Shown: positions 15,643 through 37,045, numbered from the stretch's first letter. The stretch is 64,000 nucleotides of DNA from Halioglobus sp. (GCA_965227435.1 CBDDGB010000002.1:678181-742180); one strand, 5' to 3'. Program-made: numbers and translations. The notes: generated by a model not told the origin, from the letters alone.

Positions 15643-16377
15643 ATGAATGGCCCGCCGTCACCTCTTCGTCGCTTCGGGCGCGAGCTTAAACGCCGCGGCG
15701 TCACCCGCGCCTGCGTTCTCTATATTATCGCCTGCTGGGTCATCCTGCAGGTCGGCGATATCGTGCTGAACTCCCTCGAGTCGGACATGACTGCGGTTTC
15801 ACAGGGCCTGTTAGTGGCCGCCGTGCTGGGGCTGCCCGTCGTGATCACGATCTCCTGGTTTTACCAGTTCTCAGCCGCCGGCATTCGGCGCACGCCAGCG
15901 TTCACCGAGCGGCGAGTACTCGACAATATCGCCATCATCGACGACCGGCGCAAGGACCCGCCATCGCGGGGCTCACCCTCGCGACAGGAGGCGAGCTACG
16001 ACTGGGTTCTCGAGATCGACTCCGGCCCACTCTCAGGTAAACGCTACGGTGTAGACGCAGATGTCATCGTTGGCCGCTCCTCCAGTTGCGAATTGACGAT
16101 ACCGGTGGCGCATATTTCTCGGCGACACATGCGTTTTCGACTCGACGATGACGGACTGCTGCTCGAAGACCTCGATTCATCCAACGGCACAACGTTGAAC
16201 GGCCGAAAAATCAACGCCCCTACCCTCTTGCACCACCATGACACGATAGAAATTCCGAATGTAAAAATCAGAATCCTCGAAAATCTCGCAAGGTCGCGCG
16301 CGACCGATGCAGCCACTCAACACACACTGCAGATCGCCACAGAACGCGATACCCACAAAGTCTCTCGAGAAACTTGA
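15643..16377 (+). CDS. Membrane-anchored FHA-domain protein
   Basis: Two N-terminal TM helices; FHA motifs VGRS, ISRRH, DSSNGT. Confidence 0.85.
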   Translation: MNGPPSPLRRFGRELKRRGVTRACVLYIIACWVILQVGDIVLNSLESDMTAVSQGLLVAAVLGLPVVITISWFYQFSAAGIRRTPAFTERRVLDNIAIIDDRRKDPPSRGSPSRQEASYDWVLEIDSGPLSGKRYGVDADVIVGRSSSCELTIPVAHISRRHMRFRLDDDGLLLEDLDSSNGTTLNGRKINAPTLLHHHDTIEIPNVKIRILENLARSRATDAATQHTLQIATERDTHKVSRET

Positions 16378-16401
16378 CTTAGCATCCGCACCAGCTATAA
16401 A
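16374..16401 (+). promoter_or_regulatory. Sigma70-like promoter for the redox operon
   Basis: TTGACT-N16-TATAAA overlapping the upstream stop codon; GGGAG RBS before TTG 16486. Confidence 0.55.
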
Positions 16402-16485: not shown

Positions 16486-18984
16486 TTGGCTGAGAGCTAC
16501 CACATCGCCATTATTGGCGCTGGTCCGGCTGGCCTTAGTGCAGCTGGTAGAGCTGCCCACCACGACAGGGAGTCAGGTGTAAGTTCACCCACCTATGTTC
16601 TCCTTGAAGGCTTCTCTACCTTCGCGAAAACCATCCAGAAGTACCAGAAAGGCAAGCACGTCATGGACACGCCTGGCTTCCTGGACCTGCGCAGTCCCGT
16701 GCCCTTTGTCGCGGGTAAGCGCGAGGAAATCCTGGGCGGCTGGCAAAACAGTATCGACACCGACAGCATCAACATTCGCTACAACAGCGAAGTCACGGCT
16801 ATCGAGGGCGAGCGCGGCAACTTCTCTATCAAGACATCAAGCGGCGAGACCATCAACGCCGAGCATGTCGTCATGTCAATCGGCACACAGGGCAACCCGC
16901 GGGCACTCGGCGTAGAAGGTGATGCTGAATCTGACTTTGTGATGTATACCCTTGATGATCCTGAAGAATTCCAGGGCGAGAGCATCGTTGTGGTGGGCGC
17001 CGGCGACGCCGCAATCGAGAACGCCATCGCGCTCGCCGAGTACAACAAGGTCTACATAATCAACCGGCGGAACGAATTCAGCCGCGCCAAAGACGGCAAC
17101 CTCAATGCAGTGCTCGCGGCTATCAACGACAAGGGCCGCGACTTCCACTGCTTCTACGAGACCAACGTGGGCGGCCTCGAACTGCCCGGCGAGCCCGGCA
17201 GCGCGGGCGCCATCATCCTCAATACCGCGACCGGTGAGGAGCGCGTCGAGTGCCATCGCATTATCGCCCGCCTCGGCACCCTCCCCCCGCGCAAATTCGT
17301 CGAGTCCTGCGGCATCGAGATCTCCAGCCCCAGCGCTGACGCGGTGCCGGACGTCGACAACGAATACATGAGTAACGTCCCCGGTCTTTACGTAATCGGG
17401 GCGCTGGGTGGCTACCCGCTGATCAAGCAGGCAATGAACCAGGGTTACGACGTGGTGGAATACATCCACGGCAATCACGTCGAACCGGTCGATACGCCGA
17501 TCCTGAAGAAGAAGTTCCAGGGTCTGCCGATCAAGATGCCGACCCCGGAAGACGTGCTGTCGCTGTACCAGTCAAAGATTCCCATGTTCCGCCGCATGAG
17601 CCCGTTGGCCTTCCGCGAACTCATTATCGAGAGCCGGATACTCGTGGGGCTCGAGCCCGCAGAGTACGAGCGCACGAGCAAGGATGAGGACGAGCACGCC
17701 ACCGTCTTCATCAAGGATGGCGAGCCCGTGTACCAGCACGGCGAATACTCCACGTCGTTCTACACGCTGGTCGAGGGCGATGTGCGCATGCAGCTCGACG
17801 AGGACGGCACGTGGCACAACATTTCGCCCGGCCAGTTCTTCGGCGAGATGAGCCTGATTTCGGGGCGCCCCCGCCAGGGCAGCGCCATTGCCGATCGCGA
17901 CTGCATACTGATCGAGACCCCTCGCCGGATCATGGTCAAGCTCATGAACTCGAACGAGGAAGTGCGCGCCGGCATCGACAGGGTCTTCATCATGCGCGCG
18001 CTGCAGGCCGCGTTCCAGCCACAGCTTTCACTCGACGCGCTTGCCGACATTGCAGGGCGTGTCGAGCCCTGCACCTTCAAGGCGGGCGAAACCATCTTCA
18101 GCCAGGGCGAATCCGGCGACCACCTGCACCTCGTCCGAAGTGGCACCGTGACCTTGTCACGTGGCGACCAGGACATGGTTGTCGCACAGCTACAGTCCGG
18201 CGAACTGGTGGGCCAGATGGCGCTCATGGGCGCGCCGGTGCGCCGCGACACCGCCACGGCTGCGGTGCGCACGGAGACACTGAAGGTCTACCGCGACGAA
18301 TTCCTGGCCATGGTGAACAGCCAGCCGGGGCACGTTGAAGAGCTGCAGGAAGAACTCAGCGAGGTGATACGCCAGACCAACGCCATGGGCTCGCAGCCGG
18401 AGTCTGCGCGCGCCATCGGCTTCCTGATGGACCAGGGCCTCGGCGAGGCCACCAATGCGCTGGTGATCGACGAAGCGCTCTGCGTTGGCTGCGACAACTG
18501 TGAGAAAGCCTGCGCGGAAACCCACGGGGGTATCTCCCGACTGCGCCGCGAGGAAGGCGCATCGCTCGCTTCACTGCACGTGCCCGTTGTTTGCCGTCAC
18601 TGCGAGCTGCCGCACTGCATGAAGGATTGCCCACCGGATGCGCTGCGTCGCGCCGCCTCGGGTGAGGTCTTCATCGATGCAGAAACCTGCATAGGCTGCG
18701 GCAACTGCGAAACCAACTGCCCGTACGATGCCATCAAACTCAGCTACCAGCCGGAGCCGAAGCCTTCGCTCTTCTCCTGGCTGTTCTTCGGTCGCGGCTC
18801 AGGCCCGGGCGAACAGGATGACTTCACGGCCACCGAAGCCTCCAAGAACTCAGGCAAGAAAGCCGTGAAATGCGATGCCTGCATGGATCTCGCGGGCGGC
18901 CCCGCCTGCGTTCGCGCGTGCCCCACAGGCGCCGCGGTCAGGCTGGGCCCCGAACAGTTCGTTGAACTGGTGGAGGCCCGCTAG
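16486..18984 (+). CDS. FAD/NAD(P)H oxidoreductase + two cNMP-binding domains + 4x[4Fe-4S] ferredoxin domain
   Basis: GAGPAG, GAGDAA..INRR; FFGEMSLISGRPR and LVGQMALMGAPVRR; 16 Cys in four clusters (CVGCDNCEKAC, CRHCELPHCMKDC, CIGCGNCETNC, CDACMDLAGGPACVRAC). Confidence 0.9.
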   Translation: MAESYHIAIIGAGPAGLSAAGRAAHHDRESGVSSPTYVLLEGFSTFAKTIQKYQKGKHVMDTPGFLDLRSPVPFVAGKREEILGGWQNSIDTDSINIRYNSEVTAIEGERGNFSIKTSSGETINAEHVVMSIGTQGNPRALGVEGDAESDFVMYTLDDPEEFQGESIVVVGAGDAAIENAIALAEYNKVYIINRRNEFSRAKDGNLNAVLAAINDKGRDFHCFYETNVGGLELPGEPGSAGAIILNTATGEERVECHRIIARLGTLPPRKFVESCGIEISSPSADAVPDVDNEYMSNVPGLYVIGALGGYPLIKQAMNQGYDVVEYIHGNHVEPVDTPILKKKFQGLPIKMPTPEDVLSLYQSKIPMFRRMSPLAFRELIIESRILVGLEPAEYERTSKDEDEHATVFIKDGEPVYQHGEYSTSFYTLVEGDVRMQLDEDGTWHNISPGQFFGEMSLISGRPRQGSAIADRDCILIETPRRIMVKLMNSNEEVRAGIDRVFIMRALQAAFQPQLSLDALADIAGRVEPCTFKAGETIFSQGESGDHLHLVRSGTVTLSRGDQDMVVAQLQSGELVGQMALMGAPVRRDTATAAVRTETLKVYRDEFLAMVNSQPGHVEELQEELSEVIRQTNAMGSQPESARAIGFLMDQGLGEATNALVIDEALCVGCDNCEKACAETHGGISRLRREEGASLASLHVPVVCRHCELPHCMKDCPPDALRRAASGEVFIDAETCIGCGNCETNCPYDAIKLSYQPEPKPSLFSWLFFGRGSGPGEQDDFTATEASKNSGKKAVKCDACMDLAGGPACVRACPTGAAVRLGPEQFVELVEAR

Positions 18985-18986
18985 GT

Positions 18987-19859
18987 ATGCACCAGAGTCT
19001 CCTGAGCTGGCAGCGCTTTCGCTATCTCTACGTGGCGCTCACCGTTGCAGTGGTGAGCATCCTCCTGTACGCGACCCAGGGCGGCAACTCGGCACAGCCT
19101 CCCAACGGCGGCACCTGGCAGGGCTACGTGCTCGGCACGGTAGGCGCACTGCTGATTGTCTGGCTCAGCCTGCTGGGCGTGCGCAAGCGCCAATACAGCT
19201 CCAACGTGGGTTCAGTGCAGGGCTGGGCCTCCGCGCATGTCTACCTGGGTATCGCGCTGTTGCTCGTCGCTACGCTGCACTGTGCCGCGCAGTTCGGGTG
19301 GAATGTACACACGCTGGCCTATGTGCTGATGTGCCTCGTGATCGGCACAGGCATCTACGGACTCTACGTTTACCTGCACCTTCCGCGTGCGCTGGCGCGC
19401 AACCACGCGGGGCGCGACGCGCAGAGCTGGATGAAAGAGCTCAGCGAAGTCGACGATGGCATCCGCGACGCAGCGAGCAAGGTCGACGCCGACCTGCAGT
19501 CCATGACGCTGAGCGCACTGGACCACACCCGACTGGGCGGCGGAGTCATGGCGCAGCTGTTTGCCCAGGACCGTTGCCGCGTGCGACAGGGTGGCAGCCT
19601 CGTGTCCAACAGCGGGCAGGACGTCATGATCAACGAGCTCTCGCGGCGCATACCCGATGCCAGCCGGGTCTCGGAAGCCGAAGTGCTGATCGAGCTACTG
19701 TCGATGTTTGGTCGTCGGCAGGTGATCCTGCAGCTGTTGCGCAAGGACGTGCAATACCGTGCACTCCTCAAGGTGTGGCTCTATTTCCACGTGCCCCTGA
19801 CGATGGCCCTACTCGTGGCCCTCACAGTGCACATTATTGTTGTCTTCCTCTACTGGTAG
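18987..19859 (+). CDS. Integral membrane protein, ferric-reductase-like putative di-heme b
   Basis: About 5 TM helices; His pairs HVYLGIALLLVATLH and HVPLTMALLVALTVH. Confidence 0.75.
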   Translation: MHQSLLSWQRFRYLYVALTVAVVSILLYATQGGNSAQPPNGGTWQGYVLGTVGALLIVWLSLLGVRKRQYSSNVGSVQGWASAHVYLGIALLLVATLHCAAQFGWNVHTLAYVLMCLVIGTGIYGLYVYLHLPRALARNHAGRDAQSWMKELSEVDDGIRDAASKVDADLQSMTLSALDHTRLGGGVMAQLFAQDRCRVRQGGSLVSNSGQDVMINELSRRIPDASRVSEAEVLIELLSMFGRRQVILQLLRKDVQYRALLKVWLYFHVPLTMALLVALTVHIIVVFLYW

Positions 19860-19863
19860 CGCC

Positions 19864-21594
19864 GTGCACTATCTGATCAGAACTCTCACGGGACGCGGCG
19901 GCGACACAGCCCTCGACACAGAGTACTCCGCTGACCAGCTGACGCTCGGCAGCGGTGACAAAGACACGGTGCAGCTGCCCGGCCTCTCCGGCCAGCTCAG
20001 GTTCAGCCCCTCGGGTGATGGCAGCGCAAGTTTCTCCGCCAAGGGCATCAAGGCCACCATAGGCAGCGACACCACCGCCAAGGCAAAGGTCGCGATAGGC
20101 GACCAACTCAAGGTACCTGGCTATGCGATCGAGGTCATCGCGGCGCCCACAGGCTTCGACTTTGCACTGCAGATTGCCTCGGAAGGCGTCAGCTACGCCG
20201 ACAGCATGGATATCGGCGAACGCCTGTGGAGCATGCGCCGCTCCAGCTGGCTTCTCGCGTCACTGGTGCTTGTTCTTTGCTTCATTATTCCACTTGGCGT
20301 GCTGCTTTCACCCGACACGGCCAAAACGCTGCGGGATGCACCGCTGCCCGACGACGGCATGTGGTCCAGCGGCCCGCTGATCAGCGCGCACTCAACAGCG
20401 GGCATAGCGGAGGACTGCCAGTCCTGCCATACAACCCCGTTCGTCATGGTGGAAGACCAGGCCTGCCTGGACTGTCACCGCGACATCAAGGAACACGTGG
20501 ACATCGGCATACACGGCGCGGAGGACTTTGCAGACGTACGCTGTGCCACCTGTCACCGCGAGCACAATGAACCCGCTGCCCTGGTGCGCACAGACAACGG
20601 CCTCTGCGTCGACTGCCACGCCGAGCCCGCCCGTTTCCCGAAAGCCGAGGGTATGGCCGAGGCGCACAAGTTCACGGCCGACGATCACCCCGAGTTTCGC
20701 ATCGATCTTCTGGTACCCAAGGGTCGCGGCGGCTCCATGACCTGGGTGCGCGAGGCGCGCCGGCTTAACGAACCGGGTCTCGTGGAGCAGTCCGGGCTCA
20801 AGTTCAATCACGATGTGCACATGAACCCTGCCAAGGTGAAAGACCTTGTCACCGACGAGGCGCTGGTGTGCGACAGCTGTCACCAGCTTGAGGCGGACAA
20901 CGAGCACTTCGCGCCCATCACCATGGACGGCGAGTGTCGCAGCTGTCACGAACTGACCTTCGACAAGTTCGCACCCAAGATGGAGTTGCCGCACGGCAAC
21001 ACCGAAGCCGCCCTCGTGGCTATGGAAGCGCACTATATTCGCCAGTTTACCGACCCGGAACTGCGCGCCAAACGCTCCAGCGTTCGCGGTTCGGACTCCA
21101 GGCGCCGTAAGCCCGGCAGCAAGCGCAATGAAGGTGAAACCTGCGAAGGCACACCCTTCGAGTGCGGCCGCCAGGAAACCGCCCGACAAGCCGGGGTACA
21201 GTTCAGCAAAACAGGCTGTGTAACCTGCCACAACGTGGTTGATTCCGAGAGCGACAACCTTCTCGACCGCTACTACGTGCAGCCGGTGAAAATCACGGGC
21301 GACTGGTACACGGGCAACCGCTTCGACCATCGCGCCCATATGGCCTTCCGGGGCGAGAACCAGGACGAGGTCTGCATGACCTGCCACGAGGTCATGACCT
21401 CTTCGGTGTCGGAGGACATCCTGATACCCGGCCGCGACAACTGCCTTGCGTGTCACGACGACAACCTGGGCGACACCACCGTTTACTGCGTCAGCTGTCA
21501 CGCATTCCACCTGCCCGCGGGCACACTGTCGACCGAGAGCCGCAACATCGGCTCGATGTCCGGGAGTCCACATGGCAGCACTGAGGGAGAATAA
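19864..21594 (+). CDS. Membrane-anchored decaheme c-type cytochrome with FHA-like N-terminus
   Basis: 10 CxxCH motifs; TM WLLASLVLVLCFIIPLGVLL; GTG start at 19864 preferred over TTG 19837. Confidence 0.88.
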   Translation: MHYLIRTLTGRGGDTALDTEYSADQLTLGSGDKDTVQLPGLSGQLRFSPSGDGSASFSAKGIKATIGSDTTAKAKVAIGDQLKVPGYAIEVIAAPTGFDFALQIASEGVSYADSMDIGERLWSMRRSSWLLASLVLVLCFIIPLGVLLSPDTAKTLRDAPLPDDGMWSSGPLISAHSTAGIAEDCQSCHTTPFVMVEDQACLDCHRDIKEHVDIGIHGAEDFADVRCATCHREHNEPAALVRTDNGLCVDCHAEPARFPKAEGMAEAHKFTADDHPEFRIDLLVPKGRGGSMTWVREARRLNEPGLVEQSGLKFNHDVHMNPAKVKDLVTDEALVCDSCHQLEADNEHFAPITMDGECRSCHELTFDKFAPKMELPHGNTEAALVAMEAHYIRQFTDPELRAKRSSVRGSDSRRRKPGSKRNEGETCEGTPFECGRQETARQAGVQFSKTGCVTCHNVVDSESDNLLDRYYVQPVKITGDWYTGNRFDHRAHMAFRGENQDEVCMTCHEVMTSSVSEDILIPGRDNCLACHDDNLGDTTVYCVSCHAFHLPAGTLSTESRNIGSMSGSPHGSTEGE

Positions 21595-21597
21595 AAC

Positions 21598-23793
21598 ATG
21601 AAATGGCGTGCACTATTGCTCAGCGGGGTTCTTGTCCTCGGAGCCTGCGGAGGCGGCGGAGGTAGCGGCGCACCGGGCCAGGGTTCAGCACCCGGCGATG
21701 ACCCTGCCGGTCGTTCATGCGACGGCTTCTGCGCAGATGCGGGCGCACCGATCTTCCTGACCCAGGCAGACGTCAAACGCATTCTCGCGCAGGCCGTGCA
21801 CCAGGCCGATGCGCTCGGCGCAGAGCAGGTCACCGTCGCCGTTGTCGACCGCGTTGGCAACGTGCTCGCCATCCACCAGAAAGGCGGCGGACAGATTCTG
21901 CGGGTCACCACCGACGACCCCAACGAGGTGCGCGCCGCCCTCGACGGCCTGACGATTCCAGCGGAGTTCAGCCCGGACACGCTCGCAGCCCTGGCCAAGG
22001 CGATAACCGGCGCCTATCTGTCGAGTGAAGGCAATGCCTTCACCACGCGCACCGCGAACCAGATTGTGCAGGAGCACTTCAACCCCGGCGAACGCAACCA
22101 GCCCAGCGGGCCGCTGTTTGGCGTGCAGTTCAGCCAGCTCGCCTGCTCCGACTTCATGATGCGCGCCACCGGCAACGGTGTCAGCGTGGGCCCGCACCGC
22201 TCTCCCCTCGGTATGTCTGCTGACCCGGGCGGCCTGCCGCTCTACAAGGACGGCACGGTAGTCGGCGGCATTGGCGTTCTGTCCGATGGGCTCTACAGCG
22301 TCGATAAGAACATCCTCAACAACGACCGCGACAACGACGAAATGATCGCGGTGGCCGGCTCCTTCGGCTTCGCAGCGCCCAAACCGCGCCGCGCCGATCG
22401 CATCACGGTCGAGGGCAAGACATTCCGCTATGCGGACGTAGACTTTGACAACCTGCCCGTGTCGCCCGAAGACGCGCCTGCCTACGAGAACGTTGGCGGC
22501 ATGCTGGTCGGCGTTAACGGCTATTACACTGTGACTGGCGACGACGACGCCGACATACTCGCGGGCACGGCGTTTACAACACCCGCCTCCGGCGTTCGCG
22601 CAGTCCAGGCCGGCGACTACCCCGCACAGGACGTCGCCGACTTCCAGGAACTGCAGGCCTTTACCTTCGTCGACCAGAACAACGCCGTCCGCTTCCCGCC
22701 CATCGATGGCACAGACGCCGCACAGCTTGCCCAGAATGGCGGCGCCGCGCCGATCAGCGCCGAGGAAGTCACGCAGCTGATGAAGAACGCCCTTGGCGTT
22801 GCACTGCGCGGCCGCGCGCAGATCCGCACCCCCCAGGGCACGCCGATTCGGGTAACCATCTCTATCGTCGACTCGCAGGGCACCATTCTCGGCATGATGC
22901 GAACCCGCGACGGCCCGATTTTCGGGTCTGACGTGTCACTGCAGAAAGCGCGCACCGCCGCCTTCTTCTCATCGACAGATGCCGCCGATGTCCTGCGCTC
23001 AATCGACGACCTGACATTCATTCCGCGACTTGAGGTAGAAGGCCTGCCGCCGCTCGGACCCGTTCCCAACCTGCAGTACATCGAGATCGACCCGGAGCTG
23101 GTTCCACCAGGACTCCCGGTACTGCGAACCTATAGCACGCCGGTCTTTTTCGCAGATTACGTGACAGCCGCCAAGGAGTTCATCGGCCCCACTGCACTTG
23201 AGGACGGTGTGGCCTTTGCAGATCGCTCCGGCGGTAACCTCTCGCGGCCCTTTTATCCCGACGGGATTCGCAATACCGCAAACGGTCCGTTCAGCAAGCC
23301 ATTTGAGCTGGCCGACCCGGGCAGCGTCGAGTGGAGCGTCTTCTCTAGCGGACTGCAGCTCGACCTCGTGCTCGGGCGAGTGCTGCAGCACGCGCTGTTC
23401 TCGCTGGGCGACCCCCGAGTCCCTGACGTTGGCGACAACTGCATCGGCGTTGAGGCGGAAGCACCCCGACGCATCAATAACGGCATCCAGATCTTCCCGG
23501 GCTCGGTGCCCATTTTCCGAGGTGACCAGCTGGTTGGCGCCATCGGTATCTCGGGCGACGGTATCGACCAGGACGACATGATTTCATTCCTCGGGCTGCA
23601 CGAGGCTGGCCTCGCGCTGACGGAAGCGCGACAGGCGGAGGTCGACGCCGGCACGTATACGCCGATCGGCAATGCACCAAAGGATATGCGTGCTGACCAG
23701 CTGCAGCCCAAGGGCGAGCGCTTGCGCTATATCCAGTGCCCGCAAACACCATTTATAGGTAGCAGCGAAAACTTCGTCTGCGACGGCAAATAG
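21598..23793 (+). CDS. Lipoprotein with two GlcG/HbpS-like heme-binding domains
   Basis: Lipobox LGAC; repeats VTVAVVD..G / LAKAITGA / GGLPLYKDGTVVGGIGV and VTISIVD..G / LQKARTAA / GSVPIFRGDQLVGAIGISG. Confidence 0.85.
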   Translation: MKWRALLLSGVLVLGACGGGGGSGAPGQGSAPGDDPAGRSCDGFCADAGAPIFLTQADVKRILAQAVHQADALGAEQVTVAVVDRVGNVLAIHQKGGGQILRVTTDDPNEVRAALDGLTIPAEFSPDTLAALAKAITGAYLSSEGNAFTTRTANQIVQEHFNPGERNQPSGPLFGVQFSQLACSDFMMRATGNGVSVGPHRSPLGMSADPGGLPLYKDGTVVGGIGVLSDGLYSVDKNILNNDRDNDEMIAVAGSFGFAAPKPRRADRITVEGKTFRYADVDFDNLPVSPEDAPAYENVGGMLVGVNGYYTVTGDDDADILAGTAFTTPASGVRAVQAGDYPAQDVADFQELQAFTFVDQNNAVRFPPIDGTDAAQLAQNGGAAPISAEEVTQLMKNALGVALRGRAQIRTPQGTPIRVTISIVDSQGTILGMMRTRDGPIFGSDVSLQKARTAAFFSSTDAADVLRSIDDLTFIPRLEVEGLPPLGPVPNLQYIEIDPELVPPGLPVLRTYSTPVFFADYVTAAKEFIGPTALEDGVAFADRSGGNLSRPFYPDGIRNTANGPFSKPFELADPGSVEWSVFSSGLQLDLVLGRVLQHALFSLGDPRVPDVGDNCIGVEAEAPRRINNGIQIFPGSVPIFRGDQLVGAIGISGDGIDQDDMISFLGLHEAGLALTEARQAEVDAGTYTPIGNAPKDMRADQLQPKGERLRYIQCPQTPFIGSSENFVCDGK

Positions 23794-23803
23794 GGACAGG
23801 GGG

Positions 23804-25684: not shown

Positions 25685-25693
25685 GTGACTGCC

Positions 25694-28600
25694 ATGAGAA
25701 TCTCGACAATAAAACTCCGTAGCCTCTCTACCATCGGCCGTCTCGCGGCGGTCGCACTGGTGGCAGGTCTCGCATGGGCCGGCCCGGCAAGTGCCGCCTC
25801 AAAGCTCGTTGCCGTGGAGCGGGATTACATCACCGCACCAGATGCACCACCGAGCCAGAAGGCAGCAGCGGTCACGGCAAAGTCGGAAGGGTGCGAAAGC
25901 TGCCACACGGCAACGGACCAGAAGACCATGCACGCCAACCCGGCAGTCAAGCTGGGCTGTACGGACTGCCACGGCGGCAACGCCGAGGTCTTCCGGCCCG
26001 AAGGGTCATCGACGCTGGATGACGCGCCGTACCTCGCTGCCATGGAATCGGCGCACGTTCTGCCCCGCTACCCCGATGCCTGGCATTACCCCTCCAGCGC
26101 CAATCCCAAGCGCACCTATACGCTGCTCAACAAGGAAAGCCCGGAATTTGTGCGCTTTATTAATCCATCAGACTACCGGATTGCCCGGGAAGCCTGTGGC
26201 GCTTGCCACCTGCCGATCATCCAGGCCGCCGAACGCAGCCTGATGGCCACCTCCGCCATGCTCTGGGGTGGTGCCGCGTACAACAACGGTATCCTGCCGT
26301 TCAAACGCTACATCCTTGGTGAGGCCTACAACCGTGAAGGTGTCGGCACGAGCCTACAGAACCCGATCGAGCCGACCGAGGAAATGATTCAGGCGAGCAT
26401 TCTGCCGCAGATCTTCCCACTGCCCGCCTGGGAGACCATCCACCCCGGCGATATCTTCCGTGTTTTCGAACGCGGCGGCCGCAACATCAGCAACCTGTTC
26501 CCGGAAACCGGGCTGCCCAATGCGCTCGGACTACTGCAACGTATTGAGGAACCGGGACGGCCCGACTTCCGCCAATCCAACCGCGGACCGGGTACAGGCG
26601 CACGTATCGCGGTACCCGTGATCAACATTACCAAGACGCGACTCAACGATCCGCACACCTGGTTTATGGGCACCAACGACCAGCCCGGCGACTTCCGCCA
26701 CTCGGGCTGTGCATCGTGTCACGTGGTGTACGCGAACGACCGCGATCCGCGTCACTCCGCAGGCTACAGCCAGTTCGGCCACACCGGGCGCACGCAGACG
26801 GCCGACCCCACCATTTCCAAGGAAGAAAAGGGTCACCCGCTCAAGCATGAGTTCACACGTGCGATTCCGACCAGCCAGTGTATGTCCTGTCACATGCACC
26901 AGCCGAACATGTTCATCAATACGTACCTCGGCTACACGATGTGGGATTACGAATCGGATGCGCCGCGCATGTGGCCCGAAGAGCAGTTCTACCCCACGGA
27001 CGAAGAACGCCACAACACGCTGGAACGCAACCCGGAGGGCGCTGCACCGCGTGGCAAGTGGAAGGACATCGAGTTCGTAGAACAGGTGTCTGAAATGAAT
27101 GACCAGATGCAGGACACCCAGTTCGCCGACTATCACGGTCACGGGTGGAACTTCCGGGCGATCTTCAAGCGCGACCGCGTGGGCAACCTGCTGGACGCTG
27201 AGGGTAATATCGTCAGTGACGATGACCCCGAAAAGTTCGACAAGGCGGTGCACATGTCCTCGATCCACGTGGATGTGGGAATGCACTGTGTCGACTGTCA
27301 CTTCGCGCAGGATAACCACGGTAACGGGCATATTTACGGAGAGGTCGCGGCCGCCGTCGAGATCGACTGTAAAGACTGCCACGGCTCTGCCGACGCCTAC
27401 CCGAACCTCTACACCTCGGGACCGGCCGCACTCGAGGGCGGCACGAACCTGGGTGCTATTCGCAACCCGGACGGCCGCAGACGCTTTGAGTGGATTGGCG
27501 ACAAGCTGATACAGCGCTCGGTGCTGAACCCCGATCTTGAGTGGGAGATGAGCCTCGTCAAGGACACGGTGACACCTGGCCACGCCAGCTACAACAAGAA
27601 GGCGGCCCGCTCCAAGCTCATGAGCGACGACACCGAGAAGCAGAACTGGGGCCTCAGTGTTGCCAACGAAGACCGGGCGCACTCGGATGACGACATCGAG
27701 TGTTACACCTGCCACACGTCCTGGACAACAAGCTGTGGTGGTTGTCACCTGCCCATCGAGGCGAACAACAAGACAGAACGTCATCACTACGAGGGCGGCG
27801 AAACGAGGAACTATGCCACCTACAACCCACAGGTGGCGCGCGACCAGATCTTTATGATCGGACGGCGCGAAACGGCGAAAGGCGGCAAGATCGCGCCGGT
27901 ACGCTCTACCTCGGCGCTGGTGTTGTCTTCCACCAACTCCAACCGCGAGAAGATCTACGTACAGCAGCCGCCGATCGCATCGTCTGGCTACAGCTCGCAG
28001 GCCATGAACCCGCACTTCCCGCACACGGCGCGTAAGACCGAGACTCGCGTGTGTGACGACTGTCACCTCTCGAAAGAGAAAGACAACAACGCGATCATGG
28101 CGCAAACGCTGATGTACGGCACCGACTTCATCGACCTGCTCGGTTACCACGCTTACGTGGGCGGTGAAGAACACATTACGCCTGTACAGGTCACGGAGTG
28201 GCAGGAACCGCAGGCGGTAATCGGCAGCTATCTGCAGCGTTACGCCTACCCCGACTACTTCGGTGAACACCAGGCGAATGGCAAAGTGCTGAAACACGCC
28301 TACCCGCACGGCAGCGGCCGCGCGGCGTGCATCCAGCTACGCGGTGAATACCTCTTCGTAGCCGAGGGTGATCGCGGCATGCAGGTGTACGATGCCGCCA
28401 GCGTCGGCAACAAGGGTATCTCGCAACGCGTGATAACCGCGCCGTTCAGCCCGCTGGGCCACGACACGCGCATCGAGAGCAAGAACGCCACCTGCGTTGC
28501 CCTCTCGACGACCCAGCCTGTCGCACCGGAGCGCAACGAGGGCGACCTGATGCGCGTGACCAACCAGGAGCAGCCGTTCCAGGCGCACTATACGTACGCG

Positions 28601-29434
28601 TTTATCACGGACTCCGAGGAAGGCCTGATCCTGACCAACATGGACACGCTCATGGATGGCGAGCCGCGCAACAACTTCATGGAGCGCCAGCTGACCTGGA
28701 ACGAGGGCGGCATTCTCGACGGCGCGCGGCACATCATCCTTGGCGGCTACTACGCCTACATCGTCGCCGATGCTGGCCTGGTCGTGCTGAACCTCGAGGA
28801 CCCGCTCAACCCGATCCACGAGGCAACGGTGCCGCTGAACGATGGTCACTCGGTCGCACAGCAGTTCCGTTACCTGTTCGTGACCGATGCCGATGGCCTC
28901 AAGGTGATCGACATCACCCACCCACCGAAGCCGCAGCTCGTGGAAGGCAGCATGATTCCACTCGCCGAGGCCGGCAGGTTGCACCTTGCACGCACGTACG
29001 CTTACGTGGCGGCGGGTTCAGAGGGAATGGCTATCGTGGATATCACCAGGCCTGAGAGCATGAAGCTCTACCAGATGTTCAGCGATGGCCTTGTAGACAG
29101 TCAGGATGTTACTGTAGCCACGACCAACGCATCGCTGTTCGCCTACGTGGCAGATGGCCGCGGTGGCCTGAAAGTAATACAGCTGACCTCGCCCGAAAGC
29201 CAGCCCAAGTTCTACGGCTTCAGCCCGGAACCCAAGCCAGTGCTGATTGCGAGCTACCCGACCAAATCGCCGGCGCTGTCGCTGTCGCGAGCCCTTGAGC
29301 GGGACCGCGGTGTTGACGAGACCGGTGGCCAGGTCGCGGTATTCGGACGTGTGGGCTCGCGCCCGCTGAACCTGGAAGAGATGCAACGCCTCTTCCTCGA
29401 TGATCAAGGCAAACCATGGTATGTAGAAAACTAG
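25694..29434 (+). CDS. Exported decaheme c-type cytochrome with C-terminal LVIVD-repeat domain
   Basis: Signal peptide (..GPASA); 10 CxxCH motifs; repeats such as YLFVTDADGLKVIDITHP and YAYVAAGSEGMAIVDITRP; alternative GTG start 25685. Confidence 0.88.
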   Translation: MRISTIKLRSLSTIGRLAAVALVAGLAWAGPASAASKLVAVERDYITAPDAPPSQKAAAVTAKSEGCESCHTATDQKTMHANPAVKLGCTDCHGGNAEVFRPEGSSTLDDAPYLAAMESAHVLPRYPDAWHYPSSANPKRTYTLLNKESPEFVRFINPSDYRIAREACGACHLPIIQAAERSLMATSAMLWGGAAYNNGILPFKRYILGEAYNREGVGTSLQNPIEPTEEMIQASILPQIFPLPAWETIHPGDIFRVFERGGRNISNLFPETGLPNALGLLQRIEEPGRPDFRQSNRGPGTGARIAVPVINITKTRLNDPHTWFMGTNDQPGDFRHSGCASCHVVYANDRDPRHSAGYSQFGHTGRTQTADPTISKEEKGHPLKHEFTRAIPTSQCMSCHMHQPNMFINTYLGYTMWDYESDAPRMWPEEQFYPTDEERHNTLERNPEGAAPRGKWKDIEFVEQVSEMNDQMQDTQFADYHGHGWNFRAIFKRDRVGNLLDAEGNIVSDDDPEKFDKAVHMSSIHVDVGMHCVDCHFAQDNHGNGHIYGEVAAAVEIDCKDCHGSADAYPNLYTSGPAALEGGTNLGAIRNPDGRRRFEWIGDKLIQRSVLNPDLEWEMSLVKDTVTPGHASYNKKAARSKLMSDDTEKQNWGLSVANEDRAHSDDDIECYTCHTSWTTSCGGCHLPIEANNKTERHHYEGGETRNYATYNPQVARDQIFMIGRRETAKGGKIAPVRSTSALVLSSTNSNREKIYVQQPPIASSGYSSQAMNPHFPHTARKTETRVCDDCHLSKEKDNNAIMAQTLMYGTDFIDLLGYHAYVGGEEHITPVQVTEWQEPQAVIGSYLQRYAYPDYFGEHQANGKVLKHAYPHGSGRAACIQLRGEYLFVAEGDRGMQVYDAASVGNKGISQRVITAPFSPLGHDTRIESKNATCVALSTTQPVAPERNEGDLMRVTNQEQPFQAHYTYAFITDSEEGLILTNMDTLMDGEPRNNFMERQLTWNEGGILDGARHIILGGYYAYIVADAGLVVLNLEDPLNPIHEATVPLNDGHSVAQQFRYLFVTDADGLKVIDITHPPKPQLVEGSMIPLAEAGRLHLARTYAYVAAGSEGMAIVDITRPESMKLYQMFSDGLVDSQDVTVATTNASLFAYVADGRGGLKVIQLTSPESQPKFYGFSPEPKPVLIASYPTKSPALSLSRALERDRGVDETGGQVAVFGRVGSRPLNLEEMQRLFLDDQGKPWYVEN

Positions 29435-30720
29435 TCGCCGCCTGTTTTGCGCTAGTCGGCGCCCTTGTTCTGGCCGGTGCCGCCCAGGCGGCGCCGTTGC
29501 CTGACTCAGGGGCGAACGTGCACGAGGGCGTTGCGAGCTGTTCAAACAGCGTCTGCCACGGCAAGAAAGCACCCAGCACCGACTCACCAGTGCTGCTCAA
29601 CGAGTACACCACCTGGATAGATGAAGACCAGCACTCGCAGGCTTACGCCACGCTCCGGTCCGACCAGTCGGTGCGCATCGCTAAAAACATGGGCCTGCCG
29701 AACGCACACACGGCCGATGTCTGCCTCGATTGTCACGCCGACAACGTACCGAAAGAGAAACGCGGACGGCGCTTCCAGATCACCGAGGGTGTCGGGTGCG
29801 AGGCCTGCCACGGCGGTTCGGGTAAGTGGCTGGAGTCACACGCTGAGGAAGGCACATCGCACGCGGACAACCTGGCCAAGGGTATGTACCCCACCGAGGA
29901 GCCCGTAGAACGCGCCCGCCTCTGCCTCTCGTGCCACCTCGGCACCGAGCGCAAGTTTGCGACCCATGAAATCATGGGCGCCGGCCACCCGCGACTGGCC
30001 TTTGAGCTGGAGCTGTACACCGTCTTCCAGCCACGCCACTACGAAACCGACGCGGATTACCGCGCACGCAAACCGTTCATCCCATCGGTCAACATGTGGC
30101 TGGCGGGCCTCCTGGTATCGAGCGAACAGACGCTCGAACTACTCCAGGAGGACTGGTTCACCAAGCGCAGCCTCGTACCGGAACTATCATTCTTCCAGTG
30201 CCATGCGTGCCACCATCCGCTGGATGACCTGCGCTGGCAGCCCGAGGGTGGCGCAGCCGCGCTGCCACCCGGATCAGTACGACTGAACGATGCCTCATTA
30301 CTGGTACTGCAATCGGTGCTCAGCATCCTCGGCAACGACGCCGCGGCGCAGATTCAGCGCGGCATCCACGAGTTGCACCAGTCGACGCTAACTGACCGCA
30401 ACGCGGTCGTTGCCGCGGCAGCGAAGCTGGAGAAAATACTGCCGCCGCTCGAGAAGGCCATCGTAGACAGGGACTACAATGCTGACGATATGAAGCGTTT
30501 GCGCGAGGGCATCATCAAGGCTGCCGCCAACCAGCGCTATCGCCACTTTACAGCGGCAGAGCAGGCTTACATGGCGGTCGAAAATCTCTGCATCGAGCTG
30601 AATGACGACAAGCGACTGCAGGCGAATCTCGACGAGTGGTTTGAGATCGTCGAAAAAGAGAATGAGTTCAACCCGCAAAAGTTCGCTGCCTCCGCCAACC
30701 GTTTCCTGGGTGCTCTGTGA
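29416..30720 (+). CDS. Exported multiheme cytochrome c (c554/c552-like)
   Basis: Signal peptide; CSNSVCH (CX4CH), CLDCH, GVGCEACHG, CLSCH, CHACH. Confidence 0.85.
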   Translation: MVCRKLVAACFALVGALVLAGAAQAAPLPDSGANVHEGVASCSNSVCHGKKAPSTDSPVLLNEYTTWIDEDQHSQAYATLRSDQSVRIAKNMGLPNAHTADVCLDCHADNVPKEKRGRRFQITEGVGCEACHGGSGKWLESHAEEGTSHADNLAKGMYPTEEPVERARLCLSCHLGTERKFATHEIMGAGHPRLAFELELYTVFQPRHYETDADYRARKPFIPSVNMWLAGLLVSSEQTLELLQEDWFTKRSLVPELSFFQCHACHHPLDDLRWQPEGGAAALPPGSVRLNDASLLVLQSVLSILGNDAAAQIQRGIHELHQSTLTDRNAVVAAAAKLEKILPPLEKAIVDRDYNADDMKRLREGIIKAAANQRYRHFTAAEQAYMAVENLCIELNDDKRLQANLDEWFEIVEKENEFNPQKFAASANRFLGAL

Positions 30721-31703
30721 CTGAAACCGGTGGTGTCGCAGGGTTAGAAACGAGCGGTCACACCGACGTTGGTAAGAGAAAGCATAACGAGGACGCTTTC
30801 CTTATTGACCGAGAACTGGGCCTTTATGTCGTCGCAGACGGCGTTGGCGGCCACCATTCCGGTGAAGTGGCGAGCGCGCTTACGATTGAGGTGATACAGC
30901 GCGAAGTCGCTGCGGGTAAAGACCTCGACACCGCCATTCAACTTGCCAACCAGGCAGTGATTGACGGCGTCGAGACCGGCAAAGGCAAAGCCGGCATGGC
31001 GACCACGGTGGTCGCCCTGAAGCTGACAGGTACTCGTTTCGAGGTCGCCTGGATTGGCGACAGCCGTGCCTATCTCTGGGACGGCAAGCTGACCCTGCTG
31101 ACGAGAGACCACTCGTATGTTGAGGCGCAGCTCGCGGCGGGCAAGATCACGCTGGAAGAAGCGCGTGTACACCCGAGGCGCCACGTGATACTGCAGGCGA
31201 TAGGCCTGCAAATGGAAGGCGAGCTGAACGTCGGCCACAACAGCGGCGAACTCGCTGAAGGCAACACCCTGCTGCTCTGCAGTGACGGCGTGACAGACCC
31301 GCTGGACAATGAACAGCTGTCGCACCTGTTGGGTCGCGACACGCCGCTGGAGCAAACCTGCAATGGGCTGGTGCAGACGGCCCTGCAGTGTGGCGGCAAG
31401 GACAACACCACCGCGGTCGCACTCGCCTACCAGCGAGACTCCGGGCGCGATAGCGCGCCGGGTACCGCAGACGATGCGGTCTGGGTCTACAATCCAGAGA
31501 CCGGCGAGTACGAAGGGTTGCCGGATACGACGCCCGAGATCAACCTGGAGGAAACCCAGGTCATGCGTGCGCGTCCCGCCTCGGCTGCGCCCGAAGCGCA
31601 ACAGGCGAGTGGGCACGAGGGCGGCAATGGCTGGCAATACATCTGGGGTGTCGCGATTGTCGGCACCGCAATGGGACTGGCCCTGGTCTACGCCTTGAGT
31701 TAG
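30717..31703 (+). CDS. PP2C-family Ser/Thr phosphatase with C-terminal TM anchor
   Basis: HNEDA, VADGVGGH, IGDSRAY, LLCSDG, GGKDNTT; GTGA overlap with the cytochrome gene. Confidence 0.92.
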   Translation: MTETGGVAGLETSGHTDVGKRKHNEDAFLIDRELGLYVVADGVGGHHSGEVASALTIEVIQREVAAGKDLDTAIQLANQAVIDGVETGKGKAGMATTVVALKLTGTRFEVAWIGDSRAYLWDGKLTLLTRDHSYVEAQLAAGKITLEEARVHPRRHVILQAIGLQMEGELNVGHNSGELAEGNTLLLCSDGVTDPLDNEQLSHLLGRDTPLEQTCNGLVQTALQCGGKDNTTAVALAYQRDSGRDSAPGTADDAVWVYNPETGEYEGLPDTTPEINLEETQVMRARPASAAPEAQQASGHEGGNGWQYIWGVAIVGTAMGLALVYALS

Positions 31704-31727
31704 GGCAGCCAGGCAAGGAGAACCATC

Positions 31728-31826
31728 ATGGCAGAAGAGCATCAACCGATCGGCTGGCAGTACATCTGGGGAGTCGCAATCGTGGGCACCGCCCTCGGAA
31801 TAGCGCTCGTTTACGTACTCCTGTAA
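31728..31826 (+). CDS. 32-aa membrane microprotein paralogous to the PP2C C-terminal helix
   Basis: AAGGAG RBS 31715-31720; MAEEHQPIGWQYIWGVAIVGTALGIALVYVLL*; not in the ORF track. Confidence 0.8.
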   Translation: MAEEHQPIGWQYIWGVAIVGTALGIALVYVLL

Positions 31827-31858
31827 ACGCAGTCGACGGAGAATCTGGGAGAAAGAAC

Positions 31859-32941
31859 ATGGCAGATCAAGGCGTCACCGCCCGTCTGGTCGCGAGCGAC
31901 GGCACGGCCTATGAATTGTCCGGTGAACAGACACTGGGCAGGTCCAAGGACGCAGACATTACTATCAGCGATCCGAAAATCTCGCGCCAACACGCTCGTT
32001 TCACACTCAGCGGCGAAAGCCTCACTGTAGAAGACCTCGGCTCGGCTAATGGCACCCGAATAAACCAGCGCAAGATCGACGGCGCTGCCGCACTTGCCAA
32101 CGGCGATACCGTCAGCTTCGACACCGTGGATCTCAGGGTTGAAGTCATCGGCGCCGATGCGGGTGGTGACGATTCCGACGAAGCCACTATCATCGGTAGT
32201 CTCGATGAAGAGGCCACCATGGTCGGCATGGCCGCGGCAGAACCTGCACCGGATCCGGAACCGGAGCCAGCGCCAGAACCGGAGCCCGCGCCAGAACCGG
32301 AGCCCGCGGCAGCACCGGAGGGCAAGGTAAGCGCTTCCGCGAAATCAGAATCCAAGGAAGCCGATGTGCCGGACTCCTGGACGGACGAGTCTGCGGGCGG
32401 CTCGGAAACCCAGTTCATCACACCCGAGATGGCCAAGCAGATCGCCGAGATGGCAGAGGACGTCAAGGTCGAAGCCGCGTCAGACCTGCCCCACCTGATT
32501 GTGCTCAACGACAACGGCACGCAACAGGTCGTTGAGCTTGAGACCGGCGCCGAAGGCGCTGACGTCTGGGAAATCGGCCGCGATGATTCCTGCCAGATCG
32601 TACTGCCGCAAGTCGGTGTCTCGGGGCGCCACGCGCAACTGGTTCACGAGGACGGACGCTGGCGGATCGTCAATCTCGTCTCAACGAACAGCATCTTCGT
32701 GAATGGCGAGAAGCGCCCCAAGGCCTTCCTCGGCAACGACGACAAGATCGGCCTCGGCGAAGCCAAGCTGGTATTCAAAGTGGGTAAAGGTGGCGCTGCA
32801 GCACCGCGTCCGGCCGACGCGAAGGCAACCTCAGGCGGCGGCGATTCAGCAGGTGGCGGCGGCATGTCTGCCGGCAAGATCGGTGGTATCGTCGGCGCGG
32901 TCGTGGTTCTCGCCGCGGTCGCTTACTTTCTGCTGGGCTGA
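31859..32941 (+). CDS. Double-FHA protein with PEPEPA linker and C-terminal TM anchor
   Basis: FHA1 LGRS..ISRQH..SANGT; FHA2 IGRD..VSGRH..STNS; C-terminal hydrophobic helix. Confidence 0.9.
   Translation: MADQGVTARLVASDGTAYELSGEQTLGRSKDADITISDPKISRQHARFTLSGESLTVEDLGSANGTRINQRKIDGAAALANGDTVSFDTVDLRVEVIGADAGGDDSDEATIIGSLDEEATMVGMAAAEPAPDPEPEPAPEPEPAPEPEPAAAPEGKVSASAKSESKEADVPDSWTDESAGGSETQFITPEMAKQIAEMAEDVKVEAASDLPHLIVLNDNGTQQVVELETGAEGADVWEIGRDDSCQIVLPQVGVSGRHAQLVHEDGRWRIVNLVSTNSIFVNGEKRPKAFLGNDDKIGLGEAKLVFKVGKGGAAAPRPADAKATSGGGDSAGGGGMSAGKIGGIVGAVVVLAAVAYFLLG
32242..32321 (+). repeat. Coding 18-bp repeats (PEPEPA linker)
   Basis: CCAGAACCGGAGCCCGCG-like units encoding EPAPDPEPEPAPEPEPAPEPEPAAAPE; boundaries approximate. 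Confidence 0.75.
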
Positions 32942-37004: not shown

Positions 37005-37045
37005 CTCGTGCTGCATTAAAGGGCCCAACCTAAGAGGACTTGACC

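Follow-up and report, generated by a model that had tools for sequence, protein, structure and literature searches.

A conserved multiheme cytochrome cluster of Halioglobus and its relatives as a candidate signal-gated electron-export system

In a 64,000-nucleotide (nt) stretch of DNA from Halioglobus sp. (GCA_965227435.1, CBDDGB010000002.1:678181-742180; hereafter the window, whose numbering is used for all positions), a Halieaceae (OM60/NOR5) gammaproteobacterium, ten open reading frames (ORFs) at 16486-32941 form a cluster that combines a flavoprotein with iron-sulfur motifs, a membrane protein with four invariant histidines, three multiheme c-type cytochromes and an outer-membrane beta-barrel. 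This cluster is one conserved functional unit across classes and phyla, in which the genes are grouped far beyond chance. Invariant ligands, membrane topology and acidobacterial gene fusions strongly indicate that it provides a path for electrons from the cytoplasm to the periplasm, consisting of a predicted flavin, four Fe-S clusters, two b hemes and c hemes. As a whole, we tentatively read the cluster, at somewhat less than even probability, as a self-contained, post-translationally gated electron-export system with an inner and an outer module.

All ten ORFs (O1 to O8, a micro-ORF and O10; Table 1) lie on the plus strand and are tightly packed, every junction being an overlap or a gap of at most 32 nt (in order from O1 to O10: +2, -23, +3, +10, 0, -19, -4, +24 and +32 nt). 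The second junction, between O2 and O3, amounts to +4 instead of -23 if O3 starts at the GTG at 19864, which is its probable true start, as the gene caller places it there in a near-identical contig (L165). Domains were assigned by Pfam and NCBIfam profile searches, and c-heme motifs were counted as CxxCH or CxxxxCH, giving 25 for the cluster (ten each in O3 and O6, four plus one in O7). Profile and motif searches thus agree with an original prediction for this DNA, which had described ten co-oriented genes in this order with these domains and 24-25 c hemes. The TTGACT-N16-TATAAA promoter that had been placed in front of them is literally present as a motif, whereas a promoter scan of the region returned sites no more common than in shuffled sequences, and this motif fails the scanner's rule and is not listed by it; it is compatible with a promoter and carries no weight as evidence for one.

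Relatives of the barrel O5 occur in at least 580 genomes when one genome per species is scanned (at least 573 relatives in a second count), both numbers counting the barrel and not the whole cluster, and the synteny counts are based on the best 80 loci of these at least 580 genomes. O1-O2-O3-O4-O5-O6 keep the same order and strand in all 47 complete-span loci from other species. Synteny across phyla had been named beforehand as a check on the cluster, with a lack of co-occurrence as a result that would speak against it; the genes do co-occur. Of 39 loci that could be evaluated, 35 have O7, which lies behind O6 or, on one strand or the other, upstream; 13 of the 39 have the PP2C gene and 16 the double-FHA gene. 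The predicted ten-gene system therefore holds for O1 to O6 and largely for O7, whereas the PP2C, the double-FHA protein and the micro-ORF are lineage-specific additions, the former two being accessory rather than universal. Apart from the cluster genes no neighbour recurs among the loci and the flanks are unrelated; Kineobactrum salinum and a Halieaceae metagenome-assembled genome (MAG), for instance, have the cluster within different flanks. Among the best 80 loci, carriers belong to the gammaproteobacterial Halieaceae, Alcanivoracaceae, Salinisphaeraceae, Lysobacterales and Steroidobacteraceae, to Colwellia, Thalassotalea, Aestuariibacter, Granulosicoccus, Arenicella and Methylococcales, to the alphaproteobacterial Thalassobaculaceae, Rhodospirillaceae and SAR116, and to MAGs labelled Myxococcales and Verrucomicrobiia, bearing in mind that the taxon labels of MAGs may be wrong. 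Cultured carriers include K. salinum, Parahaliea spp., Steroidobacter flavus, Colwellia sp. BRX10-3 and Thalassotalea sp. ND16A. Homologs of the barrel also assign the window to Halieaceae. Across classes, identity is 62-76% for O6 and 54-74% for the barrel O5. Public annotations are generic ('LVIVD repeat-containing protein', 'cyclic nucleotide-binding domain-containing protein', 'heme-binding protein'), none of the seven core proteins has a model of its own in NCBIfam or Pfam, and several components appear to be new families.

The electron entry point would be O1, which comprises Pyr_redox_2/3, two cyclic-nucleotide-binding (cNMP_binding) and 4Fe-4S dicluster domains, with the four Cys4 motifs of a four-cluster ferredoxin. 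Among proteins of known structure in the PDB, its N-terminus is closest to TrxR-like ferredoxin-NADP reductases but without the CxxC that true thioredoxin reductases have, its middle resembles the tandem CNB domains of protein kinase A regulatory subunits, and its C-terminus is of the HycB/DmsB type (HycB3 and HycB at 6e-17 to 9e-17). The GxGxxG, GAGDxA and NRRxEFxR motifs, the FGE..R of the first cNMP domain and all 16 cluster cysteines are at least 95% conserved among 49 orthologs; we take NRRxEFxR to resemble the HRRxxFR NADPH motif of the TrxR family. A signal peptide was not found in O1, and from these features we infer a cytoplasmic protein with flavin adenine dinucleotide (FAD), a site for reduced nicotinamide adenine dinucleotide or its phosphate (NAD(P)H) and four predicted [4Fe-4S] clusters. 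As a separate observation, the second cNMP domain (amino acids (aa) 512-644) matches PADLOC models of Pycsar proteins (PycTIR, TIR effectors, PycC) at up to 5e-16, a likeness at the domain level only, which raises the question of which nucleotide is sensed. A known defence system was rejected as an explanation of the cluster, as PADLOC gave domain-level matches alone (cNMP domains of Pycsar effectors and generic kinases).

O2 has five hydrophobic segments and a weak Pfam cytochrome-b561/Ni_hydr_CYTB signal. H84, H98, H268 and H282 are invariant in 58 orthologs as well as in acidobacterial fusion proteins and form two H-x13-H pairs, H84/H98 on transmembrane (TM) helix 3 and H268/H282 on TM5. 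Since a conserved RKR loop on the cytoplasmic side follows TM2, TM3 and TM5 should both run from the cytoplasm outward, and in helices that are parallel in this way each predicted heme would be held by one histidine per helix at matching depth. O2 is thus a putative di-heme b relay with the geometry of ferric-reductase-domain (FRD) proteins. In acidobacteria, a single protein of 810-815 aa unites two cNMP domains, the Fe-S domain and an O2 domain with all four histidines, and the next gene fuses FHA, Fer4 and Pyr_redox domains (about 1056-1066 aa; the last gene of loci L083 and L084); inner-module fusions of this type are also found in several metagenome loci. These fused and reshuffled polypeptides indicate that the inner-module domains move between proteins, and the fusions argue that the components of this module act together in a single complex whose Fe-S domain faces the cytoplasm. 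Of the complete path from NAD(P)H to the cell surface that had been predicted, ligands, topology and fusions hence sustain the inner-membrane part. In another locus (L112, 2709), an 839-aa ORF consists of an 8-heme cytochrome fused to a flavoprotein domain.

On the outer face of the inner membrane, O3 continues behind its single TM helix with about 420 periplasmic residues that contain the ten heme motifs (10 CxxCH in 26 of the 27 selected orthologs listed, and nine CxxCH plus one CxxxxCH in the remaining one). O3 also carries a cytoplasmic N-terminal FHA-type domain, which the original prediction had overlooked. Compared to the Pfam FHA model, this N-terminus scores 22.7-53.5 bits in five of six non-Halieaceae orthologs and 17.2 bits in the sixth (cut-off 20.7), the above-threshold orthologs coming from Colwellia, alphaproteobacteria, Alcanivoracaceae and Steroidobacter; the domain is below detection in Kineobactrum and in the window, whose copy is unmatched in Pfam even at E up to 10. 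Among 62 O3 orthologs, the arginine of the FHA Gly-Arg motif is lost in all 19 from PP2C-encoding loci, including the window, and 31 from loci without PP2C keep GR..H..N; in the remaining 12 the arginine is gone and PP2C was not seen, several of these loci being cut contigs. The pattern is given without phylogenetic correction and its lineages are not independent, so that it is to be read as a pattern and not as a statistic. It suggests that the tail-anchored PP2C together with the tail-anchored double-FHA protein replaced the putative built-in reader of O3. The cNMP and FHA domains are supported as ancient, integral parts of the system, which may exert the proposed control by cyclic nucleotides and phosphothreonine (pThr).

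For O5, in which a disordered, charged N-terminal region of about 100 aa precedes the barrel, an AlphaFold2 (AF2) model of residues 97-626, computed from 59 sequences of two clades, is of good confidence (predicted local distance difference test (pLDDT) 81, predicted template-modelling score 0.82) and has 18 strands. Its best Foldseek match is AlgE (3rbh; E 5.6e-17, TM-score 0.54-0.70), with OprD/Occ channels and MOMP next in rank, in line with the predicted outer-membrane barrel. Searches with the sequence gave no Pfam family even at E up to 10 and no PDB relatives by sequence or profile. MtrB is not among the top 50 Foldseek matches; the MtrB of the MtrCAB structure has 26 strands and sheathes MtrA, and against this measure a barrel of O5's size is much narrower and looks too narrow to sheathe a decaheme. 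An MtrB-like, heme-sheathing barrel is therefore not supported, and neither is the arrival of electrons or of O6 at the cell surface. The lumen-facing residues of O5, crudely assigned from strand periodicity, comprise 17 acidic and 10 basic ones, and a highly conserved inner loop (aa 456-526) is also acidic.

Three independent results tie the barrel, whose family comprises 1464 representative clusters at E up to 0.001, to cytochromes. While the window O5 has no CxxCH motif, a large barrel subfamily abundant in Blastocatellia carries an N-terminal tetraheme c3 fused to the barrel; four heme motifs are present on the barrel polypeptide of this acidobacterial family and of the relatives P0294, P0311 and P0385. 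At loci with such a fused c3-barrel, an O6 ortholog comes next (E = 0; nine CxxCH plus one CxxxxCH) and an O4 homolog flanks it. Finally, a metagenome scan seeded with a third, distant barrel subfamily found O6 directly after the barrel in 59 of 62 evaluable loci. Some two-thirds of them have O4 in the vicinity, and the inner module is often next to the barrel genes but with its gene order rearranged. One locus differs (L150, 12013-15780): here the barrel is followed by a 1255-aa ORF without CxxCH that is unlike O6 and may be a heme-less terminal replacement.

The hallmark component of the cluster is O6. Its 27 selected genome orthologs all have 10 CxxCH, and in more remote orthologs from metagenomes and acidobacteria the number is 9-10, with a CxxxxCH in those from acidobacteria. 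Among orthologs that share as little as 44% identity, at least 97% keep the heme motifs and exactly ten further histidines of the heme domain, and the propeller conserves only charged residues and one histidine; a Cys/His cluster was not seen there. This conservation fits better with a bis-His electron-transfer protein that has a binding or structural propeller than with an open-heme or metal-site enzyme. O6, as well as O7, has an ordinary Sec signal; a lipobox occurs in 1 of 58 O6 orthologs, and a search of O6 for a sorting tag or lipobox as proof that it sits on the surface found none. Sequence and profile searches of the PDB gave no relatives of O6, and the sole paper on a multiheme and LVIVD combination (Tenderiales) was dropped as its LVIVD protein is unrelated. 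O7 has four CxxCH and one CxxxxCH in nearly all orthologs. The best PDB match of the lipoprotein O4 is EfgA/GlcG, and a lipobox followed by a Gly-rich linker is present in 58 of 72 orthologs. O4 has no invariant His or Met, which makes a role as His-ligated heme relay unlikely and heme binding doubtful. Directly after the Gly-rich linker, O4 (aa 41-45) and its orthologs, whose N-termini were listed, show a CxxxC motif (C-T/D-G-Q/F-C), and C183, C615, C714 and C728 of O4 are at least 95% conserved.

Taken together, we tentatively propose the following mechanism. NAD(P)H would reduce the FAD on O1, from where electrons would pass through the four [4Fe-4S] clusters to O2, and two stacked b hemes on the four invariant histidines of O2 would carry them across the inner membrane. 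The anchored decaheme O3 would take them over from O2 into the periplasm. This flow would be gated by the tandem cNMP domains of O1 and the cytoplasmic FHA domain of O3, the latter role having probably passed to the tail-anchored double-FHA protein and PP2C in the lineage of the window. In the outer module, the pentaheme O7 would relay electrons to O6, which would work at the outer membrane through presumed contacts with the AlgE-like barrel O5 and the GlcG-type lipoprotein O4. O5 would be a dedicated channel, with hemes docked at its periplasmic mouth where they encounter a soluble oxidant or a redox shuttle. We slightly prefer such a channel to a true through-barrel conduit because O5 has an 18-strand solute-channel fold, the fused c3 should be periplasmic and O6 lacks a lipobox. 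The crude lumen estimate suggests a cationic species, e.g. an iron or manganese species, and the purpose may be reductive and non-respiratory, i.e. acquisition, detoxification or controlled one-electron chemistry, since the donor would be NAD(P)H and the hosts are aerobes. The outward direction of flow is likewise suggested by the NAD(P)H-type entry module, by thermodynamics and by the aerobic hosts.

Several points weigh against this mechanism. The cofactors are assigned from motifs, O2 has no relative of known structure in sequence and profile searches of the PDB, and its single-sequence AF2 model is too poor to use (pLDDT 55). On the side of regulation, cNMP-binding domains can bind other ligands, and even O3 orthologs with an otherwise intact FHA domain have Ala or Pro where the SxxH motif has its serine, so that the domain is at most a putative pThr reader. 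The charge of the O5 lumen is approximate, as it was derived from strand periodicity and not from coordinates; no Fur-box-like sequence was seen by eye upstream of O1, and there are no metal-transport genes among the recurrent neighbours of the cluster. Moreover, a barrel that always lies beside O6 is equally expected of a true conduit, and LVIVD propellers have been described as cell-surface repeats (Pfam; PMC2447325), which favours O6 outside.

The latter points lead to the strongest alternative, a true trans-outer-membrane conduit in which O6 sits on the surface, a heme segment of O6/O7 or the O4 linker runs through O5, and electrons are passed to acceptors outside the cell, for example minerals, particles, O2 or neighbouring cells. 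The almost universal adjacency of the barrel and O6 genes and the cytochrome-barrel fusions in Acidobacteriota agree with it, as do the LVIVD repeats; O3, O7 and O6 would together be long enough to span the periplasm, and the O6 hemes appear to be all bis-His, as in outer-surface reductases. We nevertheless regard the conduit as possible rather than probable, in view of the AlgE-like fold with its distance from MtrB, the rarity of an O6 lipobox and the heme-free window barrel. The N-terminus of outer-membrane barrels faces the periplasm, and the c3 fused to that end should do so as well.

Compared to channel and conduit, the remaining explanations are less likely. It is improbable, first, that the cluster is a device for redox sensing and signalling, whose heme chain carries no metabolic flux and instead informs the cytoplasm of the redox state of the envelope or the cell's exterior via FHA, cNMP, PP2C and kinase partners. 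The signalling domains are indeed integral to the system, HbpS-like proteins serve in redox sensing in Streptomyces, and genes for a kinase, for caspase-like proteins and for an FHA-EAL protein are repeatedly found close by. A sensor with a flavin, four Fe-S clusters, two b hemes and as many as 25 c hemes would be costly, however; the family has no conserved output domain, and most loci lack kinase and PP2C. Inward flow, in which the outer module would oxidise an external or periplasmic donor such as Fe(II), reduced sulfur or humics and deliver electrons to NAD(P)+ or the quinone pool, is if anything a shade more improbable still. TrxR-like ferredoxin-NADP reductases are reversible and the fused cytochrome-porins of the Cyc2 type are iron oxidases. 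For a similar FHA-TM-nonaheme protein, a 2026 preprint on Ferrigenium straubiae (bioRxiv 10.64898/2026.01.22.701106) proposes a role in bringing electrons to the inner membrane from Fe(II) oxidases. From such donors, however, NADP+ reduction through low-potential Fe-S clusters would be uphill and would have to work against the membrane potential. Most hosts are aerobic organoheterotrophs, and Pfam and NCBIfam searches of the cluster proteins found no quinone-reducing module. That the genes are no system at all, and a polysaccharide-export barrel merely lies beside unrelated cytochromes, can practically be dismissed: the closest fold is the alginate exporter AlgE and some homologs are named 'alginate export' in UniRef, yet the 47 colinear loci and the cytochrome-barrel fusions contradict a chance neighbourhood, and no alginate or exopolysaccharide genes are among the recurrent neighbours.

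PP2C (O8) orthologs mostly end in a C-terminal TM helix, and in the window the coding sequence of this tail anchor is the source of a 64-nt direct repeat (31629-31692 and 31752-31815, 80% identity) that gave rise to the micro-ORF. Micro-ORF and PP2C tail differ at 13 nt and by two aa changes, both conservative; that the aa changes are so few suggests selection on the encoded peptide. The micro-ORF is intact in L165, apparently a decayed remnant in L022 and absent from the other loci, and was rejected as a conserved component as it is confined to the lineage of the window. The membrane-anchored FHA protein O0, directly upstream of the cluster, has the same place in L165, is not a recurrent neighbour in other loci and is probably an accessory regulator in this lineage. 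A membrane Ser/Thr kinase downstream is a possible partner of the PP2C and FHA proteins; the linkage is weak, a kinase homolog being near the cluster in L006 and L165 only.

Further genes were noted beside the cluster. An autotransporter beta-domain protein (33915-35408) recurs in several Halieaceae (L002, L003, L006, L022, L165), and the kinase comes after it in the window and in L165. A caspase-like (Peptidase_C14) protein with Sel1 repeats and a long coiled coil is encoded at 37040-39748; Peptidase_C14 proteins also adjoin the cluster in the Halieaceae loci L003, L004, L007 (directly upstream of O1) and L023, and one is found in the acidobacterial locus L083 (6853-9444), where the system is differently arranged. 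In a Halieaceae MAG, an FHA-EAL protein, i.e. a cyclic di-GMP phosphodiesterase, is encoded convergently to the double-FHA gene (L002, 18837-19931, minus strand).

Table 1. Features of the cluster and its surroundings in the window, with the evidence for each assignment.
Feature	Position	Strand	Evidence
O0, membrane-anchored (2 TM) FHA protein	15643..16377	+	Pfam FHA 3.4e-17; TM aa 19-37, 49-67; directly upstream
TTGACT-N16-TATAAA promoter-like motif	16374..16401	+	TTGACT 16374-16379, N16, TATAAA 16396-16401, read directly
O1, TrxR-like flavoprotein with tandem cNMP-binding domains and predicted four-cluster ferredoxin	16486..18984	+	Pfam, NCBIfam, PDB relatives
O2, 5-TM membrane protein, putative di-heme b relay	18987..19859	+	weak Ni_hydr_CYTB match; invariant His
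O3, degenerate cytoplasmic FHA, one TM and periplasmic decaheme c	19837..21594	+	10 CxxCH; TM aa 133-151
O4, lipoprotein with GlcG/DUF336 (HbpS-like) domains	21598..23793	+	Pfam HbpS-like 1e-16; lipobox
O5, outer-membrane 18-strand beta-barrel, AlgE-like	23804..25684	+	AF2 model, Foldseek; no Pfam match
O6, secreted decaheme c with C-terminal LVIVD beta-propeller	25685..29434	+	10 CxxCH; LVIVD; caller's start ATG 25694
O7, periplasmic pentaheme (c554-like) with helical C-terminal domain	29416..30720	+	Pfam Cytochrome_C554 2.1e-11; 4 CxxCH + 1 CxxxxCH
O8, tail-anchored PP2C Ser/Thr phosphatase	30717..31703	+	NCBIfam Stp1-type 1.9e-58
32-aa single-TM micro-ORF	31728..31826	+	duplicate of PP2C tail anchor
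O10, tail-anchored double-FHA protein	31859..32941	+	Pfam FHA 1e-35, two stretches; TM aa 336-354
Membrane Ser/Thr kinase	35427..37004	+	Pkinase 2.7e-37; TM aa 346-364

Most work on envelope electron transfer has so far dealt with anaerobic metal respirers and with iron oxidisers. If the path proposed here is right, many aerobic heterotrophs, among them Halieaceae, Colwelliaceae, Alcanivoracaceae, SAR116, Steroidobacteraceae, Lysobacterales and soil Blastocatellia, send cytoplasmic reducing power to the outer membrane by a regulated route and bypass the quinone pool, which would extend envelope electron transfer to oxic oceans and soils. A more far-reaching idea, which we consider rather unlikely, is that the cluster is a bacterial counterpart of the eukaryotic NADPH oxidases and ferric reductases, assembled from unrelated parts and driving signal-gated, NADPH-dependent one-electron chemistry at or beyond the outer membrane in aerobic bacteria of the sea and the soil. 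Such chemistry could be extracellular superoxide production or the reductive mobilisation of Fe(III) or Mn(III/IV), and it would give a molecular basis to the widely measured, enzymatically unexplained extracellular reductase and superoxide activity of heterotrophic bacteria. If the proposed path holds, the proteins of the cluster are candidates, open to experiment, for producing superoxide outside the cell or acquiring metals by reduction. In addition, it contributes a candidate family of transmembrane b-heme proteins and a cytochrome-associated AlgE-like barrel family, including fused tetraheme-barrels, as well as first comparative evidence of FHA/pThr and cNMP modules built into a multiheme electron chain, and its cultured carriers make these questions directly testable.

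Full-text literature searches found no paper on the cluster, in agreement with the earlier statement that no characterisation of it was known; the closest description is the Ferrigenium preprint cited above. Its authors report an FHA-TM-nonaheme protein, a 5-TM protein and a [4Fe-4S] protein, and call the combination unprecedented and of unknown function. The architecture in these three parts, as described, is shared by O3, O2 and the Fe-S part of O1 and extends to the unusual placing of a cytoplasmic FHA on a multiheme cytochrome, and O3 orthologs do show the FHA-TM-multiheme arrangement, with a degenerate FHA in the window copy. The Ferrigenium protein has nine hemes as opposed to ten, and flavin/cNMP domains, barrel, GlcG lipoprotein and propeller cytochrome are not reported there.

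With AlgE-AlgK the cluster has in common an 18-strand barrel of the AlgE fold encoded beside a lipoprotein. In contrast, alginate genes are lacking, the lumen appears acidic rather than electropositive and the lipoprotein is GlcG-like instead of TPR-type; by sequence O5 itself is not an AlgE family member, PF13372 matching only 2 of 30 members of its family (E of about 0.01) and not the window O5. Similar to Cyc2, an acidobacterial homologous barrel is fused to an N-terminal c-type cytochrome, and a soluble species may meet heme at or in a narrow barrel. The fusion partner in Cyc2 has a single heme and the barrel about 16 strands, compared to four hemes (c3-type) in the fusions and 18 strands here; moreover, the window barrel carries no heme motif, and the cluster has an NAD(P)H-linked inner module. 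FdnGHI and HycB likewise pair a subunit with four [4Fe-4S] clusters with a membrane b-type cytochrome, to which the weak Ni_hydr_CYTB similarity of O2 corresponds, whereas the ferredoxin of the cluster would be cytoplasmic, has no Tat signal and is fused to the flavoprotein and cNMP domains, and a Mo or Ni-Fe catalytic subunit is lacking.

Two further systems bear the closest functional resemblance. Like MtrCAB and the Geobacter porin-cytochrome systems, the cluster places multiheme c genes beside an outer-membrane barrel and has two decahemes, with terminal hemes that are apparently all bis-His. The protein families are different, as had been predicted: MtrB/PioB barrels have about 26 strands and enclose a decaheme, as opposed to the 18-strand, AlgE-like O5 without a Pfam match; O3, membrane-anchored and with a cytoplasmic domain, scores 34.6 bits against MtrA/DmsE (TIGR03508, cut-off 192.2); and O6 and O3 reach 16.5 and 24.4 bits against the MtrC-type PF22113 (cut-off 30), so that a surface-lipoprotein decaheme of that type is not found. 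MtrCAB is entered from quinol via CymA/NapC, whereas no cluster protein matched CymA/NapC/NirT quinol dehydrogenases in Pfam or NCBIfam and entry would be from NAD(P)H via flavin, Fe-S clusters and b hemes; the propeller of O6, its non-lipoprotein nature, the cNMP/FHA gating domains and the aerobic hosts are further differences. The inner module, on the other hand, parallels NOX, Fre1 and MsrQ-Fre, in which electrons pass from NAD(P)H through a flavin to two b hemes held by histidine pairs 13 residues apart on two parallel helices and are delivered outside the cytoplasm under tight post-translational regulation. Judged from its sequence, O2 would have the two bis-His sites, formed by histidine pairs 12-13 residues apart on two parallel TM helices, that distinguish FRD proteins. 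It does not belong to their sequence family, as it has no match to Pfam Ferric_reduct even at E up to 10 and the flavoprotein is TrxR-like and located on O1. NOX/FRD proteins have six TM helices compared to five in O2, the flavoprotein here is a separate polypeptide with four predicted Fe-S clusters interposed, and their acceptors are O2, Fe(III) or MsrP, in place of which the cluster would use a heme c wire. By analogy, the system may combine the workings of a transmembrane chain of the NOX/ferric-reductase type with those of a porin-cytochrome system.

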